A DNA stretch of 64,000 nt from an uncultured Acidobacteriota bacterium (GCA_964586015.1 CAZPHK010000001.1:25081-89080), one strand, 5' to 3'; numbered from the stretch's first letter, positions 41,376 to 52,114 are shown. The notes: generated from the letters alone by a model not told the origin. Program-made: numbers and translations.

Positions 41376-42041
41376 ATGTCAGGAGTTGAATGTATGTTAT
41401 TATCTCTCATTATGAAACTACTTAGAATGCTTCTGCCGTTATGTCTTGCCGCCTCGTTGGTGGCCGCTGACTATCGGATAAAAACCGTTGAAATCCTGCC
41501 TGTAGAGTCCTATCCGGCTCATGTTTCCGTTGACGACATCACAATCGCCGCGGATCCTTATCCCAACGATGAAAAGTGCTCTACAGCATTCGACGTATCA
41601 AAGCTTGCTTCAAGGGGATATTTTCCCGTAAACATTATCATTAAGAACTCATCCCCCTATTACCTGAAAATAAAGACCCGGAACATTACGCTCGAAACCC
41701 GCCTCGGACAACGTCTCTACTCGACTCCGGCGGCGATGGTCGTCGAGGAAGTGGTCGGGAAAAAATACGGAGATTCCCTCTCAACCACAATTAGCGGAGA
41801 ATACGCAGCAGAGAAGATCGCGTCACCGCTTTCAGATTTTACGGGAAAAGAGCTCACCAACAGACTCATAGACCCCGGCACGGTTTACAGCGGATTCCTG
41901 TTCTTTTTTTCGGAGAAGACAAAGAGAAGTATTTTTATCGGAAGCACCCTGCACATACCGAACCTGGAGGAGGAAGGAACTCTGAAGGCGCATGGTCCGT
42001 TTACTATTCCTATGGATCCGGCATTGAACATACCAAAATAG
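41376..42041 (+). CDS. hypothetical secreted protein
   Basis: 221 aa. Probable signal peptide from the internal Met (MKLLRMLLPLCLAASLVAA). No recognisable domain. Confidence 0.35.
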   Translation: MSGVECMLLSLIMKLLRMLLPLCLAASLVAADYRIKTVEILPVESYPAHVSVDDITIAADPYPNDEKCSTAFDVSKLASRGYFPVNIIIKNSSPYYLKIKTRNITLETRLGQRLYSTPAAMVVEEVVGKKYGDSLSTTISGEYAAEKIASPLSDFTGKELTNRLIDPGTVYSGFLFFFSEKTKRSIFIGSTLHIPNLEEEGTLKAHGPFTIPMDPALNIPK

Positions 42042-42066
42042 AGAATCCGCCAGGCAGAAAAACCCT

Positions 42067-42370
42067 ATACCCGGAAGAGGCATAGCAGCCCGTGGTAAAA
42101 GTACAGCGGGCCGCGTTCCGAGCGCCGCAGGGGCAGACGCAAGGCGGCGCGACGCAGGCGATGTGGTGCATCGTTGAGGAGCGCCAACGCAGCAGATGCC
42201 CCTGCGCCGCCGGAACCCTTTGGGCGCATAGGGGTTGCGGGCAATCTCTTCGTTGCTCGTCGTCGACGATGTCCCGCATCGACTCCTCCTCGCGCCTTGA
42301 GCTTGCCTCGCAAGCCCTATGCGCGCGACCCACTGTACTTTTACCACGGGCTGATAGGGCTTCTTGGTAT
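42067..42370. repeat. ~300-bp GC-rich imperfect palindrome (long hairpin) of unknown nature; the ~47-bp terminal inverted repeats are near-identical
   Basis: The left arm ATACCCGGAAGAGGCATAGCAGCCCGTGGTAAAAGTACAGCGGGCCGCG (42067-42115) is near-identical to the reverse complement of the right arm (42321-42370, ...GACCCACTGTACTTTTACCACGGGCTGATAGGGCTTCTTGGTAT). The inner sequence keeps degenerate two-fold symmetry to a centre near 42219. It is visibly GC-richer than its flanks and carries stop-free spurious ORFs on both strands. Confidence 0.5.
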
Positions 42371-42406
42371 CAGATCGCTTGAAGCCGGGCCGGATCTTAT
42401 CGTTTG

Positions 42407-43015
42407 CTATTTCCTATTTTTTCGAAAGACTTCCGCGTAAATGCGCCTCAGCGGCGCGACACAGTATTGGTGGATTAATTCCATGAAATTCGGCGGATCC
42501 GCGATCAGATCTTCGAGATGCATTTCCCGTACGCCGAATGAGAGGCGAACTATGTCGGCTTTACCTTCACGCTCTTCCACCTTGATGCAGTCCTGAATGT
42601 CCTCCTGCAGATCGAACACATCGCAATTACGGACCGTTTTCAGTCTCTTGAACCCGTCTATGGGCTTTTCCCGGGCAGACTGATAATAAGCGGCCAGTTT
42701 TTGTGCAAGATCCCCATAGTTGAAATTCGGCACCTTATTGTTGACACTGACTTCCAGAATGCAGGCATCGTCTTCCACCATCAGGTTTAATCCATAGGTG
42801 AAATCAAGGTCGCCCTTGTTGAATTTTATTCTATGACCTGTGTCGTCGTGGAAGCGTTTCAGCTCCTCGGGAACCTGAATATCTGGATTCTCAGCCTTCT
42901 TTTCCGAAGTGATGTAATAATCGCTGACACTCAGATACCATTGATCGATAATCGCCTCCAGGGAACCGTCTATGAGCTCAGCAGTTTCATTGGGAATTTT
43001 CCTATTCACAGACAA
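42407..43015 (-). CDS. hypothetical acidic cytoplasmic protein
   Basis: 202 aa with no signal peptide and no recognisable motif. Sits between the palindrome and tRNA-Ala. Confidence 0.35.
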   Translation of the reverse strand: MSVNRKIPNETAELIDGSLEAIIDQWYLSVSDYYITSEKKAENPDIQVPEELKRFHDDTGHRIKFNKGDLDFTYGLNLMVEDDACILEVSVNNKVPNFNYGDLAQKLAAYYQSAREKPIDGFKRLKTVRNCDVFDLQEDIQDCIKVEEREGKADIVRLSFGVREMHLEDLIADPPNFMELIHQYCVAPLRRIYAEVFRKNRK

Positions 43016-43232: not shown

Positions 43233-43308
<76 letters not shown>

Positions 43309-43440: not shown

Positions 43441-44928
43441 TTATGCTTCCCCGCCTTTCTGAATAATGACGGGATTCGGAACGGGAACATTCAAATGGGG
43501 CAGCAGGGAGGATTCCATCGTATATACCGCCTCCAACAAACTGCTCCGCACCTTGTCGTCGCGTTCAATGGCAGTATGCTCCTTCAAGGCTTTCAGGGAC
43601 TCTTCGGATCTAATGGAAGCCAGGGCTCGAACCGAGGCCTGCCTTAAAACGGTCATTTCGTGATTCAAATACCGGCGGATATGCGGAATTGCCTTTTCCT
43701 TCCCGGTCTGGGCCAGAGGTATCAATGCGATAAGAGCGCTCTGGGGATGTGTCTCAATGTACTTGAGAATTTCTTCGAATGCCTCGCCGGCTCCGATTTT
43801 TCCCAGAGCCTCTATTGCACACTCGGCATGAAACGGGCTTCTTAAATCGTTCATAATCAATGGAGTCGCGGAAGAAATCTTCAATTCGCCCAGTACCCTT
43901 ATCAATCCCCATCGCACACGGTCGTTTTCCCCGGAATATAGCTTTAACACGGCTTTTACCTCGGACGATTCGATTGTATCCACCATATCCCGAACAGCAG
44001 CGAGCCGTTCCTTTGTTGTTCCGGTTCTCATTGTATAAAGCCAGGATTCGATCCTGTCCGTTTTTTCATTCCAGATGTTCCTGGTTTCATCAGACGCCGT
44101 GTGCACATTCGTCCGACTGGATACAAAAACGCTGTCTGTTTCTTCAAATTCTTTGCACTTTTCCAGTTCATGCTTCAGTATACCGGCATTTGCGAACCTG
44201 CCACCCGGCTTGATTGCAAGGCATTTTTCAAGTATCTGTTGAAGCAATTCAGGGAATTCATGTAACACGTCCTGCGGCCAGGGAAACTTGCCCAAAGGGG
44301 GAAATCCCATCAACATTTCGTACAGTATCGCTCCTAAAGCGTATACATCGGCCCTTTGATCGATTCTTTTCGTATCAAAGCGCTGTTCCGGAGCAAGATA
44401 GGCAATGGTTCCGAGAATCTCTCCGGACTGCGTCAGCGCACTTTTTTCCACCGCAAGGGTTTTCGCTATTCCGAAATCGGAGACCACCGGATTCCCTTCA
44501 GCGTCGAGCAGGATATTCGAAGGCTTCAGGTCCCTGTGGATAACCCCTCTGTCGTGGGCATGTGCCATGGCGGCGCAAATGCGCAAAAAGAGTTCTACTG
44601 CGGGCGAAAAATTGACCCTTTCCCGACGCATGTTTTGCGCAAGGTTTCCTCCCGGCATATATTCCATCGAATAGAAATAACAGTCTTCGAGGATTCCGTT
44701 GTCATAAATTTTTATAATGCCGGGGTGGGAAAGACCCCCTATAATTTCGATTTCACGCAGGAAACGGGTGTAATCCGAAGGATATTTCGTCACCCTTTTT
44801 TTGAGAATTTTATAGCCACGTTTCTGGCGCGTCCTGGGATCTAATGCCAGGTAGACATCGGACATTCCCCCCGAACCGATTTTCTCTACGAGATAAAAGC
44901 TGCCTATTTTCCTTCGCAACATTCCCAT
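43441..44928 (-). CDS. Ser/Thr protein kinase with C-terminal HEAT-like repeats
   Basis: 495 aa. Kinase motifs GSGGMSDVY, VIHRDLKPSNILL, DFGIAK, APE. The C-terminal half is helical repeats typical of HEAT or PBS-lyase repeats. Confidence 0.85.
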   Translation of the reverse strand: MGMLRRKIGSFYLVEKIGSGGMSDVYLALDPRTRQKRGYKILKKRVTKYPSDYTRFLREIEIIGGLSHPGIIKIYDNGILEDCYFYSMEYMPGGNLAQNMRRERVNFSPAVELFLRICAAMAHAHDRGVIHRDLKPSNILLDAEGNPVVSDFGIAKTLAVEKSALTQSGEILGTIAYLAPEQRFDTKRIDQRADVYALGAILYEMLMGFPPLGKFPWPQDVLHEFPELLQQILEKCLAIKPGGRFANAGILKHELEKCKEFEETDSVFVSSRTNVHTASDETRNIWNEKTDRIESWLYTMRTGTTKERLAAVRDMVDTIESSEVKAVLKLYSGENDRVRWGLIRVLGELKISSATPLIMNDLRSPFHAECAIEALGKIGAGEAFEEILKYIETHPQSALIALIPLAQTGKEKAIPHIRRYLNHEMTVLRQASVRALASIRSEESLKALKEHTAIERDDKVRSSLLEAVYTMESSLLPHLNVPVPNPVIIQKGGEA

Positions 44929-45917
44929 TATGTTTTTACCGGGGATGAATTATCCGAATTTTCCCACAACTCGACTCGATTCCTTCCGAGAGACTTGCTG
45001 CGGAACAGAGCGACATCCGCATGCTCCAACAGCTGCTCGGGATCTGCATCCGTTGCGCACTTGGACGCAACTCCCAAGCTCGCCGTTACATTTTCGGTCA
45101 GCCCAAGGGCCTGAGCCAGGTGGGATTCCAGGCGATTTCGAACTCTTCCAGCTATTTTTACGGCTCCATCACCTTCCGTTTCGGGCAGGACTATGAGAAA
45201 TTCATCCCCACCGAACCTGCCCACCTTGTCCCGACGCCTGACCGAGGAAAGTATCTCTTCGGCCACCTTTTGCAGGATTTGATCTCCCTTTAGATGGCCA
45301 TATATATCATTCATGCATTTGAATTTATCGATATCCACCAACACGACTGAAACCCAGCGTCGATCCCGGACGCTGCCCGCAATTTCTTCCTTGAGAATTC
45401 TCGTTATAGTTGCTTTATTGTTCAGAGAGGTGAGACTGTCTACTGTGGCAAGCCGATAGATTTCATCGAAGAATTGCTGTTCCGCCAGATCCCTCTGCTC
45501 ATACTTTAAAATTACGCCCCCAAGAATTATTTTGTCTCCCGGCTTTAGTATCGTTTTTTTAATCGATGAATAATTTACTAATGTTCCATTCTTACTATCT
45601 AAATCTTTAATTATTACTTTAAGTTTTGACTCTTCTGATTTTTTTATAATTTTTCGGCAGATTATCCGTAAGTGCTTCCTGGAAACAGCAGGATCGGCAA
45701 TTACAATATCGTTGTCACTGCCGCGCCCCAGCGTGATCTCACGATGGAGAATCGGGATTTCCTTGCCGATAGACGGCCCTGAAAGAAAAGTTAACGTCGG
45801 GATATATGTGGACAGGTCCCCATGCAGCGACTGCTCTCTGACAGTGCTGTCCATTTCCGTAAGAATGCTTTCGTCCGGATTTTTCTCTTTCAAACTGTTC
45901 CTAAAGGTCCTTAACAC
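44928..45917 (-). CDS. FHA-domain diguanylate cyclase (FHA plus GGDEF)
   Basis: 329 aa. N-terminal FHA (ITLGRGSDNDIVIADPAVSRKHLRI...DLDSKNGTLVN). C-terminal GGDEF domain with an intact RFGGDEF active site. Its stop overlaps the kinase start by 1 bp. Confidence 0.8.
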   Translation of the reverse strand: MLRTFRNSLKEKNPDESILTEMDSTVREQSLHGDLSTYIPTLTFLSGPSIGKEIPILHREITLGRGSDNDIVIADPAVSRKHLRIICRKIIKKSEESKLKVIIKDLDSKNGTLVNYSSIKKTILKPGDKIILGGVILKYEQRDLAEQQFFDEIYRLATVDSLTSLNNKATITRILKEEIAGSVRDRRWVSVVLVDIDKFKCMNDIYGHLKGDQILQKVAEEILSSVRRRDKVGRFGGDEFLIVLPETEGDGAVKIAGRVRNRLESHLAQALGLTENVTASLGVASKCATDADPEQLLEHADVALFRSKSLGRNRVELWENSDNSSPVKT

Positions 45918-45960
45918 TGCTTCCCCCGATTATTCTTGGTTTAATTAAATCAGTTGCCGG

Positions 45961-46812
45961 CTAATTAAAGACCACCATTCTGTTTCTTGTCCCGTGCGGA
46001 ATTATATGAACTTCATTGGAACCGTCACGAATGACCATAACATCATAAACTCTGGTACGTGATCTATTGAGCCCGCTGGAAATGTTGTAAATAATCGCTT
46101 TTTCATCGTCTAGAAAGTGCAGCTTTGAAATCATCTCTATAGGCACATGTCGGAAAAAGGCAATTAATTCGCATTCCACCGCCGGGAAATTCCTTTTATA
46201 TTCCGCCTCCTGTAAAAAAGACTTTTTTTCCGAATCCGTTATTGATTCGATATCAACGCTGGTCTGGCGTATCGGCAAATCAAAAGCCTGGGAAATCTTG
46301 GAAATTATTACCGTTTGCCTTGAAATCAGCGCCCCGTTTCCAGCGGTTCTTGGTAGCCGCAACTGCACCGAAGCGGGAATATGGACAGGCGCCGGACCGA
46401 TACCGACCCCAAATTGCCGACAGTAGGGAACGATAGTTAATAAAGCCTGCCGTACCTGTACATTGTCCTCGGCCGGAAGCTCCAACGGATAGATCGGCGC
46501 ATCTCCTATCAGTCCGGCTTTACAAATCGAAGTTTCAGTCTCGATGCATTCAAGCCCTTTGGAATCAGGTTGGCTCACTACGACATTAAAAGCGACCGGA
46601 CGGTTTTTAATATCACAGGAAAATTGGAACATATCCTCAAGGCTGGATGCGCGGGAACAGATATTGAGGGGGCAGTCCTGCACGTTTTTTATTAAATCAC
46701 GCGCCCGAACCCTTCTCCACAGCGTCTCCCTCTTCTTCCTTTTACGGGGGAGAGATCCGGCGTTGTATTTATTTTTCAGCCAGTATGCTAGCCCGGCTTC
46801 CCTTCTCCACAT
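45961..46812 (-). CDS. hypothetical protein co-operonic with the FHA-GGDEF protein and the kinase
   Basis: 283 aa by the track. The basic N-terminal ~60 aa may be read-through and the true start may be MFQFSC. No recognised domain. Confidence 0.3.
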   Translation of the reverse strand: MWRREAGLAYWLKNKYNAGSLPRKRKKRETLWRRVRARDLIKNVQDCPLNICSRASSLEDMFQFSCDIKNRPVAFNVVVSQPDSKGLECIETETSICKAGLIGDAPIYPLELPAEDNVQVRQALLTIVPYCRQFGVGIGPAPVHIPASVQLRLPRTAGNGALISRQTVIISKISQAFDLPIRQTSVDIESITDSEKKSFLQEAEYKRNFPAVECELIAFFRHVPIEMISKLHFLDDEKAIIYNISSGLNRSRTRVYDVMVIRDGSNEVHIIPHGTRNRMVVFN

Positions 46813-47363
46813 ATGCTTTTAAGTGCGGATGTTATCCGGTCCATCGGCTCCAGCAGATTCATTGTCAGGGCGATTTCCTGGAGCCAGGCTGCAATATTAT
46901 GCTGAACGGTTTCATCTGATGTCGAAAAGGCCAGACGCAGCAATATCGAGTCCTCTTCGAGTTCCATCACCGCTTCACGTTCCCGAACTCTGTTGAAAGG
47001 CCCGGAAAGCTCTCCGGGAGGCATGTTGTATTTTTGAATCGCCACCATCTCTCTGCCGTTTACCGAATCCAGGAATTCCTTCTCGTCGTAGGGAACTATA
47101 AAATAGTCGGGATGCGTCCTTAATTCAGCGACAAGACGATCCCGTATGACCGTCTCATGCAGGTATTTTTCAAGGACGGATCCGTAAAGGATCTTGTGCA
47201 GTTTAGTTGCGACTACCGGCTCGGTATATTTAAATTCAAGCGGGATACCGACCTGATTGGTAATGAGTATTCCACCCATATGTTTTTCATTTGACTTAAG
47301 ATGGCAGAAATACCCTATCAGTTTTTCTTTATGTTCGTGTTTCGTCTTGCCTTGGTCTGACAT
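46788..47363 (-). CDS. hypothetical protein, first gene of the putative signalling operon
   Basis: 191 aa, no recognisable motif. Overlaps the downstream ORF by 25 nt in a different frame. Confidence 0.3.
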   Translation of the reverse strand: MSDQGKTKHEHKEKLIGYFCHLKSNEKHMGGILITNQVGIPLEFKYTEPVVATKLHKILYGSVLEKYLHETVIRDRLVAELRTHPDYFIVPYDEKEFLDSVNGREMVAIQKYNMPPGELSGPFNRVREREAVMELEEDSILLRLAFSTSDETVQHNIAAWLQEIALTMNLLEPMDRITSALKSICGEGKPG

Positions 47364-47613: not shown

Positions 47614-47689
47614 GGGCGCCTAGCTCAGCTGGTAGAGCACTGCGATCACACCGCAGGGGTCACAGGTTCGAGTCCTGTGGCGCCCACCA
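47614..47689 (+). tRNA. tRNA-Val (anticodon CAC)
   Basis: 76 nt: acceptor GGGCGCC/GGCGCCC, D arm GCTC-AGCTGGTA-GAGC, anticodon arm CTGCG-ATCACAC-CGCAG, T arm ACAGG-TTCGAGT-CCTGT, and an encoded CCA. Confidence 0.9.
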
Positions 47690-47909: not shown

Positions 47910-48245
47910 CTATTTTTCTACTTTATTGAGGACATCCATAATAGTATTCAATTCTTTTCGCCAGAGCGGTTCTTCCCTTCGCAAGGCGTCGTGATAAAGG
48001 CCGTTCAGCTCCGCATTTCTCCGCCGCACTTGATCTTCCAGGACGGCAACATGCTTATTCAGACCGAGCATTTCCGAGCGCATGTCCAGGACTTCTTTCT
48101 CTTTTCTTCCCAAATCTTCGCATAAAGCCTTGTTGCTGCATGACAGGCTTTGAATCCGTTCCTTTTTGCCGAAGAACATTGCATGAAAAAAGAAGCCCAG
48201 AAGGCAAAAACAGAACGCGACTGCTGCCAAAACCAGGTAATTCAT
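47910..48245 (-). CDS. small membrane-anchored coiled-coil protein
   Basis: 111 aa. N-terminal TM (LVLAAVAFCFCLLGFFF), then charged heptad-like sequence. Divergent from the large kinase gene. Confidence 0.3.
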   Translation of the reverse strand: MNYLVLAAVAFCFCLLGFFFHAMFFGKKERIQSLSCSNKALCEDLGRKEKEVLDMRSEMLGLNKHVAVLEDQVRRRNAELNGLYHDALRREEPLWRKELNTIMDVLNKVEK

Positions 48246-48481: not shown

Positions 48482-51451
48482 ATGACGATTGAGACAATCG
48501 CACATTACGAGATTCTGGAAGAGATCGGATCCGGAGGTATGGGAATAGTATACCGGGCCCGGGACACCAAACTTGGCCGGGAAGTGGCCCTGAAACTTCT
48601 GCCTGAAAAACTGGCGGACAACACCGTATATCTCCAAAGATTTCAACGCGAAGCAAGAGCGGCTTCCGCATTGAATCATCCCAATATATGCACTATTTAT
48701 GAAATCGGGGAACATCAGGGCCGCCATTATATCGCGATGGAACTCCTGGAAGGGAGAACCCTGCGAAGTATGATGCAGGGGAAACCGCTTCCCGTTGAAC
48801 AAGTTGTTCATACGGCTCTGCAGATCGCGGACGCACTGGAGGCGGCGCATTCAAAAAGAATCGTTCACCGCGACATCAAGCCCGCCAATATTTTCGTAAC
48901 CCACAGGGGACACATCAAAATTCTGGATTTCGGCCTGGCCAAATGGGCTGCCCCGAATCCGGATCTTCCCGAATCGAAACCCGACAATCCCGGTTTAAAA
49001 ATGAGCGATATCACCTCCGAATACATAAGTGCCCCTCAGGTAACGATAGGAACGCTGCCCTATATGTCGCCCGAACAGGCTCTGGGAGAAGAACTGGATA
49101 CCCGGACCGACCTTTTTTCTCTGGGAACCTTGCTCTATGAACTTTTGACCGGCACCGCGGCTTTTAAAGGAGTCCATCCCCCGGTTCTTTTCCAGGAAAT
49201 TCTGACCAAAAACCCCATACCATCCATGCAACTGAATAAGGAAATCCCTCCCAAACTGGAGGATATTGTTTCCAGGTTGATGGAAAAGGATCGCGATCTT
49301 CGCTACCAGACAGCGGCCGATCTATGCGCCGACCTGAAAAGAGTGAAAAGGGATATGGAGGTTAAACACTCCATATCCGGAATGGCTTCGGCGAGTACCG
49401 TACGTTCATGGCATCCCGACAGTCTGCAGCATGTAAGAGCGGCATCTCCGGCCAAAGAGATCGGCAGACTTCGGAACATCAAATTCATTCGCTCCTTGCG
49501 AAAGCGAAAAGCAGTAGTGGCATCGGCGTTCGTTATAGTCCTGATTCTCGCAGGCATTTTCATATTTCCCCTGAGAGGCTCCAACTATTATCCCTGTATA
49601 GAATTCCTGAATTTTGAAGGAGGATCCGAATCCGTAGACGCCCAACTGGTCGGGTTTATACTAAAAAGAATACTGTCTCAATTTCCCGAAGTTACGGTGG
49701 TGGACAGCGAGGAATTCGACTACCTGACAAAAATTGAAAGAAACCGAAGGCAGGAGGAACGATCGAAAGTACACGGTCTGTCAAAGTTAAGAAACCTGTT
49801 GAGTTGGCAAAGAGAAACGCGTGAGCCGGCTATGACCGTTTCCGGCGAGGTAAGGGATTCCCTCGGACGGCTGGAGCTTATACTGACGTGCAAAATCAGG
49901 GGAGAAAACGAGATATTAAGAAAACGACTCCGCGGCGTGGATGAATTCCTGAATAAGGGGATCGATGAATTAATCAAAGATATGCTGCTGCGTTACGATC
50001 CGAAACTTGCAGAACGGCACATTACCGGGAGACAGCCCGATTACCGGCCGGCGGTCCAGCTCCTGTCCTCCAGTTGGGACTCATTGCGGCACTACTACCA
50101 GGGAGCCCGGGCATGGGAGCGCCTCGACATGAACACGTCGGAGCGCGAACTTCAAGCGGCCCTTGAAATTGATCCCCGCTTTGCCGATGCCCACCGCATA
50201 CTGGGAGAAGTGCGCGTTTTTCAGAATCAGTGGGATGCCGCACAATCGGAAATACTGGAAGCGCGCAAGGAATCAGGGGCGCTTACCGAGGTCGATCAGT
50301 TGCGAGTTGAAGCGCTTCTAGCCCGAGTATTCCTCAAGCCTTTTGCTGAAAGAGTCTATCTTCAAAAACTGATCGATCTTCAGCCATACAAAAAAGAATA
50401 TTTATATGAGCTTGCGGAGTCCTACTTTCATACGGCGGATGTTGAAGACGCCATCATTAAGTACCAGGACGCTCTGAGCCTCAACAACAAATATGAAAAA
50501 GCATACAATCATCTCGCCTATTGTTATTCCTGGCTCGGAGATCACGAACGGGCTCTGGAAACCTGTATGCGCTATCTGGAACTGGACGGGACTGCCAACG
50601 CCTATGACAGCATGGGAGACATCTACATGCAGGCGGGCGATTACGCCAAAGCCGAAGAAATGAAGCTGAAGGCGATCGACCTCGATCCGCAGATGTACTA
50701 TGCCAGCCGGATCCTGGCATATATCGACATGTTGCGCGGACGCAATCGGGCCGCGGAGAAACGACTGCTGTCGCTGCTTTCCTCCACCGAGGACAATACA
50801 CAGATAGCGCAATATTATGCGGCCCTGGCTTTTTTATATTACAGAAAAGGAGAGTTACAGCGCGGGCAGGACATGTGCCGACAGGGATTGAAACTTATCG
50901 GATCTTTTCAGAACGATGCCCCCATTGAAGAATTGATCTGGATGAACGGGTTAATCGAACTTGAAAGAAACAACATTCCCGCCGCCCGGCAGGCGCTGAA
51001 ACATTTAAATGAAATTCTCGAAATCAATAACATCAACAACCAGAACTACAAGCAGCCGCTCAAATTCTATCTGCATCTTTCGGCCCTGATTTTCGCTCAT
51101 GAAGGCAAGGTTCAGGAGGCAAACGAAAAAATCGCGGATATCGAATGGATAAAAGAAAAGCTGGGCTACTGGAGCACCGCGTACGATTACGCATTCTTTT
51201 TTGATGCCATCGGACAAATATACGAAACGCTGCATCAGATGGGAGATGCCGAGAGATCCTACCGGGAGGCCCTGTCCTATAACTCGCACTACGCGCTGGC
51301 CCGCTTTCATCTTGCCCGCCTTCTTGAAGGACAAGGCAGCATGGAAGATGCCCGCTTCGAACTGGAACTGTTTCTTGAGGACTGGAAAGAAGCGGATCCC
51401 GATGTGCGCGAACTGGTTGAAGCCCGTACAATTCTGAATTCCGGCCGATAA
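48482..51451 (+). CDS. Ser/Thr protein kinase fused to a large TPR-repeat domain, with a central TM segment
   Basis: 989 aa. Kinase motifs [35 protein letters not shown] helix ([17 protein letters not shown]) is followed by about 600 aa of TPR-like repeats. Confidence 0.85.
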
Positions 51452-51460
51452 GAGAAACCT

Positions 51461-52114
51461 ATGATTCGCGGTGTTTTATTCGATATGGATGGAGTGATTG
51501 CCGATACGCTGCATTATCACTACCTGGCCTGGCAATATATGTTTGAAAAACATGGAGGCTCCATCAGAGAACAGACTGTCCTGCTGAATGAAGGGCGAAA
51601 ATCCAGCGAAATTCTTCCACTTCTTATGCGGGAGTCCGGAATCCTGATTCCCGAAGAAAAACAGAATCAGTTCATTGAGGAAAAGCGTACCTACTATCGC
51701 AGAATAGCCAGGATCTCCCATTTCCCGAGATCTTTTGAAGTCGTTAATACACTGAAAGAGCGCGGATTCAGAGTCGCACTGGTTACGGCATCCGCTCTTA
51801 AGAATATGGAGCATTCCTTAAGCCCGGACCAAAGGGAATGTTTTGATTTCATTATGACCGGGGATGAAATTGAACGGGCCAAACCGGACCCGGAACCTTA
51901 TCTCACAGCCGCCCGGCATATCGGGCTGAAACCCGGGGAGTGCGTCGTTATTGAAAACGCTCCTCTCGGAATCGAAGCGGCGAAAGCCGCCGGCATGCAA
52001 TGCATCGCCGTAGAATCTACGCTGAAACGGGATCAACTTGCCTCCGCAGACTATATTTGCAAAGATATAGGCGAATTGATCGACAGTCCGCTGTTCCGGC
52101 GATCTTCATCCTAG
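51461..52114 (+). CDS. HAD-superfamily hydrolase (subfamily IA, beta-phosphoglucomutase-like)
   Basis: 217 aa. Motif I LFDMDGVI plus the conserved T/S, K and E.ap.G motifs of HAD subfamily IA. Confidence 0.75.
   Translation: MIRGVLFDMDGVIADTLHYHYLAWQYMFEKHGGSIREQTVLLNEGRKSSEILPLLMRESGILIPEEKQNQFIEEKRTYYRRIARISHFPRSFEVVNTLKERGFRVALVTASALKNMEHSLSPDQRECFDFIMTGDEIERAKPDPEPYLTAARHIGLKPGECVVIENAPLGIEAAKAAGMQCIAVESTLKRDQLASADYICKDIGELIDSPLFRRSSS

Follow-up and report, generated by a model that had tools for sequence, protein, structure and literature searches.

In Pseudomonas aeruginosa, the SiaABCD operon subjects the diguanylate cyclase SiaD to control by protein Ser/Thr phosphorylation, which involves a PP2C phosphatase, an atypical kinase and a cyclase-binding partner-switch protein, and includes neither an FHA domain nor a Hanks-type kinase. 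The only characterized FHA-GGDEF enzyme, and the only FHA-gated diguanylate cyclase that has been studied, is DgcB of Bdellovibrio bacteriovorus (Bd0742; structure 6HBZ), which controls prey invasion and is inactive until residue T14 in its N-terminal tail is phosphorylated and bound in the FHA cleft (Meek et al., 2019, PMC6733907). This mechanism, in which tail phosphorylation leads to rearrangement of the cyclase dimer, was shown structurally; the kinase that phosphorylates DgcB was not identified in that study (PMC6733907), nor was a later paper found that identifies it. Here, we describe a four-gene operon on the minus strand (positions 43441-47363) of a 64,000-nucleotide (nt) stretch of DNA from an uncultured Acidobacteriota bacterium (GCA_964586015.1 CAZPHK010000001.1:25081-89080); this entire stretch is referred to as the window. 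In order of transcription, its genes are designated A and B, which encode proteins of undescribed families, C, which encodes an FHA-GGDEF protein, and D, which encodes a Ser/Thr kinase with HEAT repeats. The operon probably, though far from certainly, comprises two layers, in which C and D would constitute a phosphorylation-gated source of cyclic di-GMP (c-di-GMP) and A and B its target or platform.

Control of a cyclase by a kinase via an FHA domain, as proposed for this operon, adds an instance to a known mechanism and does not constitute a new one. What is new is the linked candidate cognate kinase, the linkage, across classes, to two undescribed protein families, and the large size of the A family, members of which are encoded near motility and signaling genes.

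The FHA-GGDEF Protein and the Adjacent Kinase

The FHA domain and intact GGDEF domain (RFGGDEF) that a preliminary description of the locus had assigned to C were both recovered by Pfam searches, with the motif as described. C also matched TIGR00254 (NCBIfam, 2.5e-45) and its best match in the PDB was DgcB itself (6hbz, E 4.6e-33, residues 40-316). C and DgcB share the two-domain architecture, a consensus FHA phosphopeptide pocket, a DxLT linker, the GG[DE]EF active site, an RxxD I-site and, in a short tail at the N-terminus, a conserved Thr located approximately 15-40 residues before the FHA core. The linker of C (DSLTSLNNK) fits the DxLTxxxN/S-R/K motif described in PMC6733907, while an RRRD I-site is located five residues upstream of RFGGDEF, which is the canonical spacing. 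Residues that specify guanine are kept (KCMND...GHLKGD, corresponding to KxxND...GHLKGD), and the guanine-binding N and D indicate c-di-GMP rather than cGAMP as the product. With all sequence features of the class present, C is a predicted DgcB-type diguanylate cyclase.

In contrast to DgcB, whose kinase is not encoded next to it, C is overlapped by one base (TAATG, as read from the sequence) by a kinase-HEAT gene with which it covaries. C further differs from DgcB in being encoded behind two undescribed genes, and its host is an acidobacterium instead of a predator. According to the DgcB study, the closest FHA structures are those of GarA and OdhI (PMC6733907). The logic of these actinobacterial proteins, in which a kinase (PknG or PknB) phosphorylates a tail Thr that binds the protein's own FHA domain, is shared; however, GarA and OdhI have no enzymatic domain and occlude metabolic enzymes, whereas C has a fused GGDEF cyclase as output. 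The OdhI and FhaB models of NCBIfam gave weak matches on the FHA domain of C. The GGDEF domain of C matched the SiaD model of NCBIfam at 1.4e-41, below the cut-off of that model. As in SiaABCD, the proposed arrangement is an operon that places a diguanylate cyclase under the control of protein Ser/Thr phosphorylation, but Pfam searches detected no PP2C or SiaC-like gene in the four-gene operon.

The kinase motifs GSGGMS, the Lys of YKILK, HRDLKPSN, DFG and LAPE (APE) were all present in D and were kept in 12 of 13 orthologues, consistent with D being an intact Hanks-type Ser/Thr kinase. Conserved helical repeats begin near residue 300.

Two loci (numbered here with the prefix L) link the fate of C to that of D. 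Both the tail Thr (T25) and the FHA pocket (GR...SRKH...NGT) were kept in 13 of 14 clade-1 C orthologues, and the single exception in either case was L021 (9396-10385), which lacks D. In L021, C had lost the tail Thr, the Ser and Asn of the FHA domain and the first Gly of GGDEF, and read EGEEF, AREH and TGT for GGDEF, SRKH and NGT, respectively. In L015 (11465-12958), from which C is absent, D read HGHLKPSN for HRDLKPSN. This covariation was observed directly, and the two loci are, by the look of their sequences, natural knock-outs that tie C to D by joint decay; it lends indirect support to the idea that tail phosphorylation would switch on the cyclase. In the class Holophagae, the tail Thr was invariant in 39 of 39 first-copy (C1) proteins. 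D is probably the cognate kinase of C. The suggestion, made in the preliminary description, that the kinase controls the cyclase via the FHA domain appears well founded in view of the fit to DgcB, the conserved tail Thr, the joint decay of C and D and the cross-class linkage reported below.

Conservation of the Gene Order

Linkage in the clade that includes the window (window clade) was counted in 17 species-representative genomes. B was found directly after A in all 17; of the evaluable loci, 13 of 16 contained C and 11 of 13 contained D. Taken alone, linkage within this clade could reflect inherited synteny. A corresponding order was observed in Holophagae, where A, an abutting gene encoding approximately 261 amino acids (aa), two FHA-GGDEF genes and a kinase-HEAT gene overlapped and followed each other on 36 of 37 evaluable contigs. 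Clusters of this Holophagae clade (at least 90%) include the cultured Mesoterricola and Geothrix. Identity between Holophagae and window proteins was 38% for A, 35-36% for C and 31% for D, and the cyclase and kinase motifs of the Holophagae proteins were all intact. None of the other neighbors in the window clade (a 182-aa secreted protein, a TonB_C-like protein, a 202-aa protein and a HAD-family protein) was shared with the Holophagae loci. That the four-gene order alone has been kept across class-level divergence indicated functional coupling rather than mere synteny. The four genes thus do co-occur in other genomes, a point on which the preliminary description had made its interpretation depend.

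Divergence differed strongly between the genes. In genome pairs whose DnaK sequences were 88% identical, A was 68-70%, C and D were about 58-61% and B was 28-34% identical.

Throughout the Holophagae loci (L026-L105; for example L029, 8331-10225), the FHA-GGDEF gene occurs as a tandem duplicate, both copies of which are intact. In these proteins, the tail Thr of the first copy occurs as ETAL or PTVV; in the second copy, where it is less strictly conserved, it occurs as PPTL or PATL. An insertion of approximately 2.9 kb separates the two copies in L086.

Proteins A and B

Neither A nor B matched a family in Pfam, NCBIfam, PADLOC or PHROGs, as expected from their earlier characterization as proteins without recognizable motifs. 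Close homologues of A (n = 281) originated nearly exclusively from metagenome-assembled genomes (MAGs) of Acidobacteriota, the top 120 showing at least 66% identity. In an exhaustive profile search, 786 cluster representatives (50% identity clusters) were retrieved at E<=1e-3, and A is, on this evidence, a member of a widespread, undescribed superfamily present in several phyla. A Pfam scan of 68 diverse members yielded no family match, and profiles built from 34 and 68 sequences showed no significant match to PDB chains or Pfam. Searches of plasmid and phage collections with A gave no match. A match to Crov588 and a 1324-aa representative, both encountered in profile searches with A and B, were dismissed as FNIP-repeat noise.

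The best of five AlphaFold2 (AF2) models of A had a predicted local distance difference test score (pLDDT) of 82.7, the remaining four scoring 47-56. Its topology was beta3-alpha-beta-alpha-beta4-alpha2. A Foldseek search of the PDB with this model returned 48 matches at E<=1e-3 (E about 1e-5 for PIWI and Endonuclease V, TM 0.35-0.57, root-mean-square deviation 5.5-9 A), mainly to AfPiwi, MpAgo, TtAgo, short-pAgo systems and bacterial and eukaryotic Endonuclease V (EndoV). Across the 68 diverse members only P41, G61, P173 and R176, described as structural residues, were invariant, and G30, F44, P49, L77 and E172 were nearly so. A conserved set of metal-binding acids (DEDx or D-E-D-D/H) was not found across these sequences, and the commonest Asp of the family (LVTD) is an Asn in the window clade. 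A is therefore probably a non-catalytic RNase H-like (EndoV/PIWI-like) scaffold, with moderate confidence in the fold. The likeness to EndoV and PIWI consists of the Foldseek matches of the best model; unlike those proteins, A is small (about 180 aa) and stands alone, and it lacks both the catalytic acid set and similarity at the level of sequence profiles.

The B family comprised 74 members, all of about 280 aa and without a Pfam match. Conservation was concentrated in the N-terminal dozen residues (MWRRExGLxYWL) and in a C-terminal domain of about 110 aa (residues ~175-283), and it was only for the latter residues that the AF2 model of B was confident. No structural match to the model was detected in the PDB or BFVD, and the B sequence profile matched neither PDB chains nor Pfam. 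Structure prediction, which had been proposed for both proteins, thus gave EndoV/PIWI-like matches of modest TM-score for A and none for B. Disorder was considered for the 170 N-terminal low-confidence residues of B and dropped, the composition being hydrophobic-rich and not of low complexity. A conserved phospho-acceptor in the variable region was likewise rejected, as no Thr is conserved there. B looks like an ancient, fast-diverging partner of A.

A locus scan with 10 sequences returned only Holophagae, and eight individual loci were inspected to sample other branches of the A family, among which Aminicenantes, Schekmanbacteria, Planctomycetales and a Fusobacteriia MAG are represented. In three of the eight (L024, L110, L112), flagellar/chemotaxis clusters ended in a gene for a FliA-type sigma factor that was directly followed by A. 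A preceded a histidine kinase and a response regulator with HATPase_c_2 in L025, was encoded near a PAS-GGDEF and a STAS protein in L109 and had only unknown proteins as neighbors in L108. An overlapping or abutting undescribed gene encoding 249-303 aa followed A in L024, L025, L108, L109 and L112, as did a 100-aa gene in L110. At equal distance from their C-termini, these six B-position proteins carry a motif resembling LE[VLI][LI][GA][VLF][FY]xx[VI]P. In a set chosen in advance, the B hidden Markov model (HMM) matched the B-position proteins of L024 (E=6e-6) and L109 (E=2e-4). A-B appears older and more widespread than C-D, as a conserved core to which the kinase/cyclase pair is attached. 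A conserved core with interchangeable signaling neighbors is the pattern that would be expected of a regulated output module, as far as this small sample goes.

Two further observations were made on the sampled loci. In L107 (6001-8618) and L111 (6001-8366), an A-like gene directly precedes a gene for an SNF2-family helicase of about 580 aa and no B-like gene is present; the A-like protein of L107 is lengthened to 299 aa. The otherwise unrelated loci L109 (6289-8804) and L112 (8089-9956) have in common a downstream SurA_N_3/Rotamase_2 protein followed by MazG, and in L109 a DUF2802/DUF6115 protein is encoded directly after the B-position gene.

Proposed Mechanism and Alternative Explanations

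In the proposed mechanism, the kinase D, a soluble protein that probably engages a partner or signal through its HEAT repeats, would phosphorylate T25 in the tail of C. The phosphorylated tail would dock in the FHA domain of either the same subunit or the dimer partner, and docking would rearrange the C dimer, bringing the two GGDEF active sites together for the formation of c-di-GMP. Product inhibition through the RxxD I-site would cap the output of C. A and B, a translationally coupled pair and the ancient core of the operon, would form a complex that serves as regulated target or platform of the local kinase/c-di-GMP pair, with signals running from C-D to A-B, and would probably be tied to motility or surface behavior. 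The role of regulated target or platform is suggested by the occurrence of A-B beside varied signaling systems in other lineages and, for the target, represents our best guess. A wider proposal, tentative and on balance doubtful, is that A and B are the first known representatives of a widespread, undescribed two-protein signaling-output module, with hundreds of sequence clusters in four or more phyla (Acidobacteriota, with the window clade, Holophagae and Aminicenantes; Planctomycetota; Candidatus Schekmanbacteria; and the phylum of the Fusobacteriia MAG), in which a catalytically dead PIWI/EndoV-like scaffold (A) and a hyper-variable adaptor (B) receive c-di-GMP and/or phospho-threonine signals and control flagellar or surface behavior. 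If true, this would explain the location of A-B after fliA as well as, in Acidobacteriota, next to FHA-GGDEF and kinase genes.

Several results weigh against the two-layer interpretation. L019 and L022 carry A-B followed directly by a TonB_C-like gene, without C-D; together with the occurrence of A-B without C-D in other phyla, this indicates that the coupling is facultative. Evidence that the B-position proteins of both acidobacterial classes are homologous is suggestive only: an alignment restricted to the C-terminal domain gave P=0.039 (reversed controls 0.63), while a full-length hhalign comparison yielded E=0.14 and an HMM rank test of B against 3156 open reading frames (ORFs) for Holophagae homology was negative. 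In B, conserved Thr residues are confined to the C-terminal domain. The fold of A was assigned from one of five AF2 models with modest TM-scores, and the link to motility comes from three of eight sampled distant lineages. The tail motif of C (S-T-V-R-E) departs from that of DgcB (E-x-T-S-hydrophobic-hydrophobic, with hydrophobic residues at +2/+3). Finally, L066 (Holophagae) has two intact cyclases without an adjacent kinase, which implies that D need not be the sole kinase, and a receptor-type kinase encoded at 48482-51451 is an alternative candidate kinase for C.

The facultative coupling is also what would be expected if the operon held two independent modules, a self-contained C-D and an unrelated A-B whose adjacency is merely an inherited order. 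In line with this, A-B is found in different contexts in other phyla and remains intact in L015 and L021 despite the loss of C or D. We nevertheless consider this explanation unlikely, because the order has been kept between classes at 31-38% identity although every other neighbor has changed, because genes of the unit overlap or adjoin one another in each class, and because order at such divergence is not normally kept without selection for co-expression. A reversed direction of signaling, with A-B upstream, was also assigned a low probability. B (or A) would then be a substrate of D and its phospho-Thr the ligand of the FHA domain of C, so that the cyclase is recruited and activated at a particular cell site. 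Other phosphoproteins are common ligands of FHA domains, the gene for B is closely coupled to that for A and immediately precedes C, T253 and T275 are conserved in the C-terminal domain of B, and the two Holophagae FHA-GGDEF paralogues could read different ligands. However, C has a conserved tail Thr of its own at DgcB-like spacing, whereas the conserved Thr residues of B lie within predicted beta-strands of a folded domain instead of an accessible linker and its variable region has none.

YcgR/MotI-type PilZ proteins are c-di-GMP receptors that are encoded in flagellar clusters. B, which has a C-terminal beta-rich domain and, at ~250-300 aa, a similar size, might be a receptor, either of a divergent PilZ-like type or of a novel one, for the c-di-GMP made by C, in keeping with a placement near a cyclase here and, for B-position proteins, after fliA in some lineages. 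The N-terminal RRVRAR stretch on which the preliminary description had based the idea of a PilZ-like B is indeed present, but it varies freely among B homologues, and neither a conserved RxxxR nor a conserved [DN]xSxxG was seen in a 63-sequence B alignment. No PilZ domain was detected by Pfam at E<=1 in B or six B-position proteins, and none was found among the top 50 Foldseek matches of B (best E 0.13). The B-position proteins thus differ from YcgR/MotI in lacking PilZ motifs, a Pfam match and a structural match, and this explanation was considered very unlikely. The weakest rival, with a very low probability in our assessment, is anti-phage defense, in which the kinase would be the sensor, the cyclase the signal generator, the nuclease-like A the effector and B a component shaped by an arms race. 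B evolves unusually fast, the predicted fold of A resembles PIWI and EndoV nucleases and D scores strongly against the PADLOC kinase models PD-T4-6 (1.7e-67), mad6 and Stk2. These PADLOC matches are, however, generic to the kinase domain, and A and B match none of the models. Inheritance is vertical, in a housekeeping neighborhood (DnaK/DnaJ, Lgt, GpsA) that is fixed across species and classes, A was not found in plasmids or phages and lacks a conserved catalytic acid set, its commonest family Asp being an Asn in the clade. It is the vertical inheritance and the missing catalytic residues of A that make defense the weakest explanation.

For the two-layer interpretation, the linked kinase/cyclase pair, including the Holophagae counterpart in relatives of the cultured Geothrix and Mesoterricola, makes the phospho-tail model directly testable, which is of interest since no kinase that activates DgcB has been found. 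The pair is, moreover, tied to two proteins whose families are represented neither in Pfam or NCBIfam nor in the PDB. If A-B is a c-di-GMP- or phospho-regulated effector, it would represent a new output class in bacterial second-messenger signaling and would provide a function for a sizeable family of 'hypothetical proteins'.

Gene Layout and Genomic Setting

The gene structure was observed directly: ORFs and junctions agree with the four-gene minus-strand cluster, with 25-nt and 1-nt overlaps, of the preliminary description (Table 1), whose reading of the tight packing as one unit is upheld by overlaps, spacing and conserved gene order.

Table 1. Coordinates of genes, domains and other features of the operon and of the divergent kinase gene.
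Feature	Position	Strand	Basis
Gene A, 191 aa, ATG start	46788..47363	(-)	ORF listing
Gene B, 283 aa, ATG start	45961..46812	(-)	ORF listing
Gene C, 329 aa, GTG start, predicted DgcB-type FHA-GGDEF diguanylate cyclase	44928..45917	(-)	ORF listing, Pfam
Gene D, 495 aa, ATG start, predicted Hanks-type Ser/Thr kinase with C-terminal HEAT repeats	43441..44928	(-)	ORF listing, Pfam
Dual-coding overlap of A 3' end and B 5' end, 25 nt	46788..46812	(-)	Junction read
B-C spacer, 43 nt, with Shine-Dalgarno-like GGGGGAAG just 5' of the GTG start of C	45918..45960	(-)	
FHA domain of C, residues 61-133, with phosphothreonine-binding residues GR...SRKH...NG	45519..45737	(-)	Pfam E 4.6e-17
GGDEF domain of C, residues 157-314	44976..45449	(-)	Pfam E 6.6e-40
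Thr25 codon (ACT) in N-terminal tail of C, candidate phospho-acceptor for FHA docking	45843..45845	(-)	Sequence read
Kinase catalytic domain of D, residues 13-241	44206..44892	(-)	Pfam Pkinase E 9.4e-44
HEAT region of D, best Pfam stretch, residues 393-467	43528..43752	(-)	HEAT_2 E 8.5e-16
Divergent receptor-type Ser/Thr kinase, 989 aa (kinase, transmembrane segment, long TPR region)	48482..51451	(+)	

The A/B overlap reads ...ATA TGT GGA GAA GGG AAG CCG GGC TAG in the frame of A and ATG TGG AGA AGG GAA GCC GGG CTA in that of B. An overlap of identical length was found in L001 and L003, and in Holophagae the stop codon of A overlaps the start codon of the B-position gene as TGATG. By its arrangement, the overlap is a predicted site of translational coupling of A and B. 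The C-terminus of A (CGEGK(P/R)G) and the N-terminus of B (MWRRExGL) that it encodes are both highly conserved in the window clade, and either sequence may limit change in the other. In Holophagae, A proteins have a C-terminal ending unlike CGEGK(P/R)G.

Genes for tRNA-Ala(CGC) (43233-43308) and tRNA-Val(CAC) (47614-47689), both on the plus strand, bracket the cluster. Their location on the opposite strand at both flanks indicates that the cluster is a self-contained transcription unit. A scan of the locus for consensus promoters and terminators gave results not above shuffled expectation and was uninformative; co-transcription is deduced from the overlaps, spacing and conserved gene order. 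An Rfam scan of the window detected only the two tRNAs and no c-di-GMP riboswitch or other known RNA. Surrounding genes encode the housekeeping proteins DnaK, DnaJ, HAD, DJ-1/PfpI, Lgt, GpsA and MoaA, and GC content is flat throughout the window. A mobile element or defense island was ruled out by these neighbors and by zero matches to plasmids or phages. The operon is located on the chromosome among housekeeping genes and does not belong to an island.

Neighboring Genes

Of the 17 clade genomes, 12 (L007-L017 and L023) encode the divergent receptor-type kinase, with 59-83% identity. Its linkage to the operon is confined to the window clade and a few Holophagae loci; an analogous 869-aa kinase-TPR protein is encoded upstream of A in Holophagae loci L048 and L049. 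It is possible that the divergent kinase provides a second input to the operon. A HAD-family hydrolase gene (51461-52114, plus strand) begins 10 nt after it, and the pair is kept beside the operon in the window clade; the HAD enzyme might be a phosphatase.

A 202-aa protein encoded at 42407-43015 (minus strand) had no match in Pfam, NCBIfam, PADLOC or PHROGs. At 69-75% identity in the relatives that carry it, this protein is better conserved than either C or D. Its gene is absent from Holophagae loci and located ~0.3 to 6 kb downstream of the operon in clade relatives.

Upstream of A, a 111-aa ORF (47910-48245, minus strand) encodes an N-terminal hydrophobic segment and a coiled-coil. At this site, 15 of 17 related genomes instead encode a secreted TPR-like protein of 178-183 aa, which the window lacks, as do its two closest relatives, L007 and L008. 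The small proteins encoded ahead of A, with 111 aa in the window and 107-120 aa at other loci, were considered as one family, an idea that was rejected as they share no family. The 366-bp gap between convergent genes at 42041-42407, for which Rfam gave no match, contains overlapping Arg/Ala-rich spurious ORFs on both strands and terminator-like hairpins at 42085-42065 and 42058-42046 on the minus strand.

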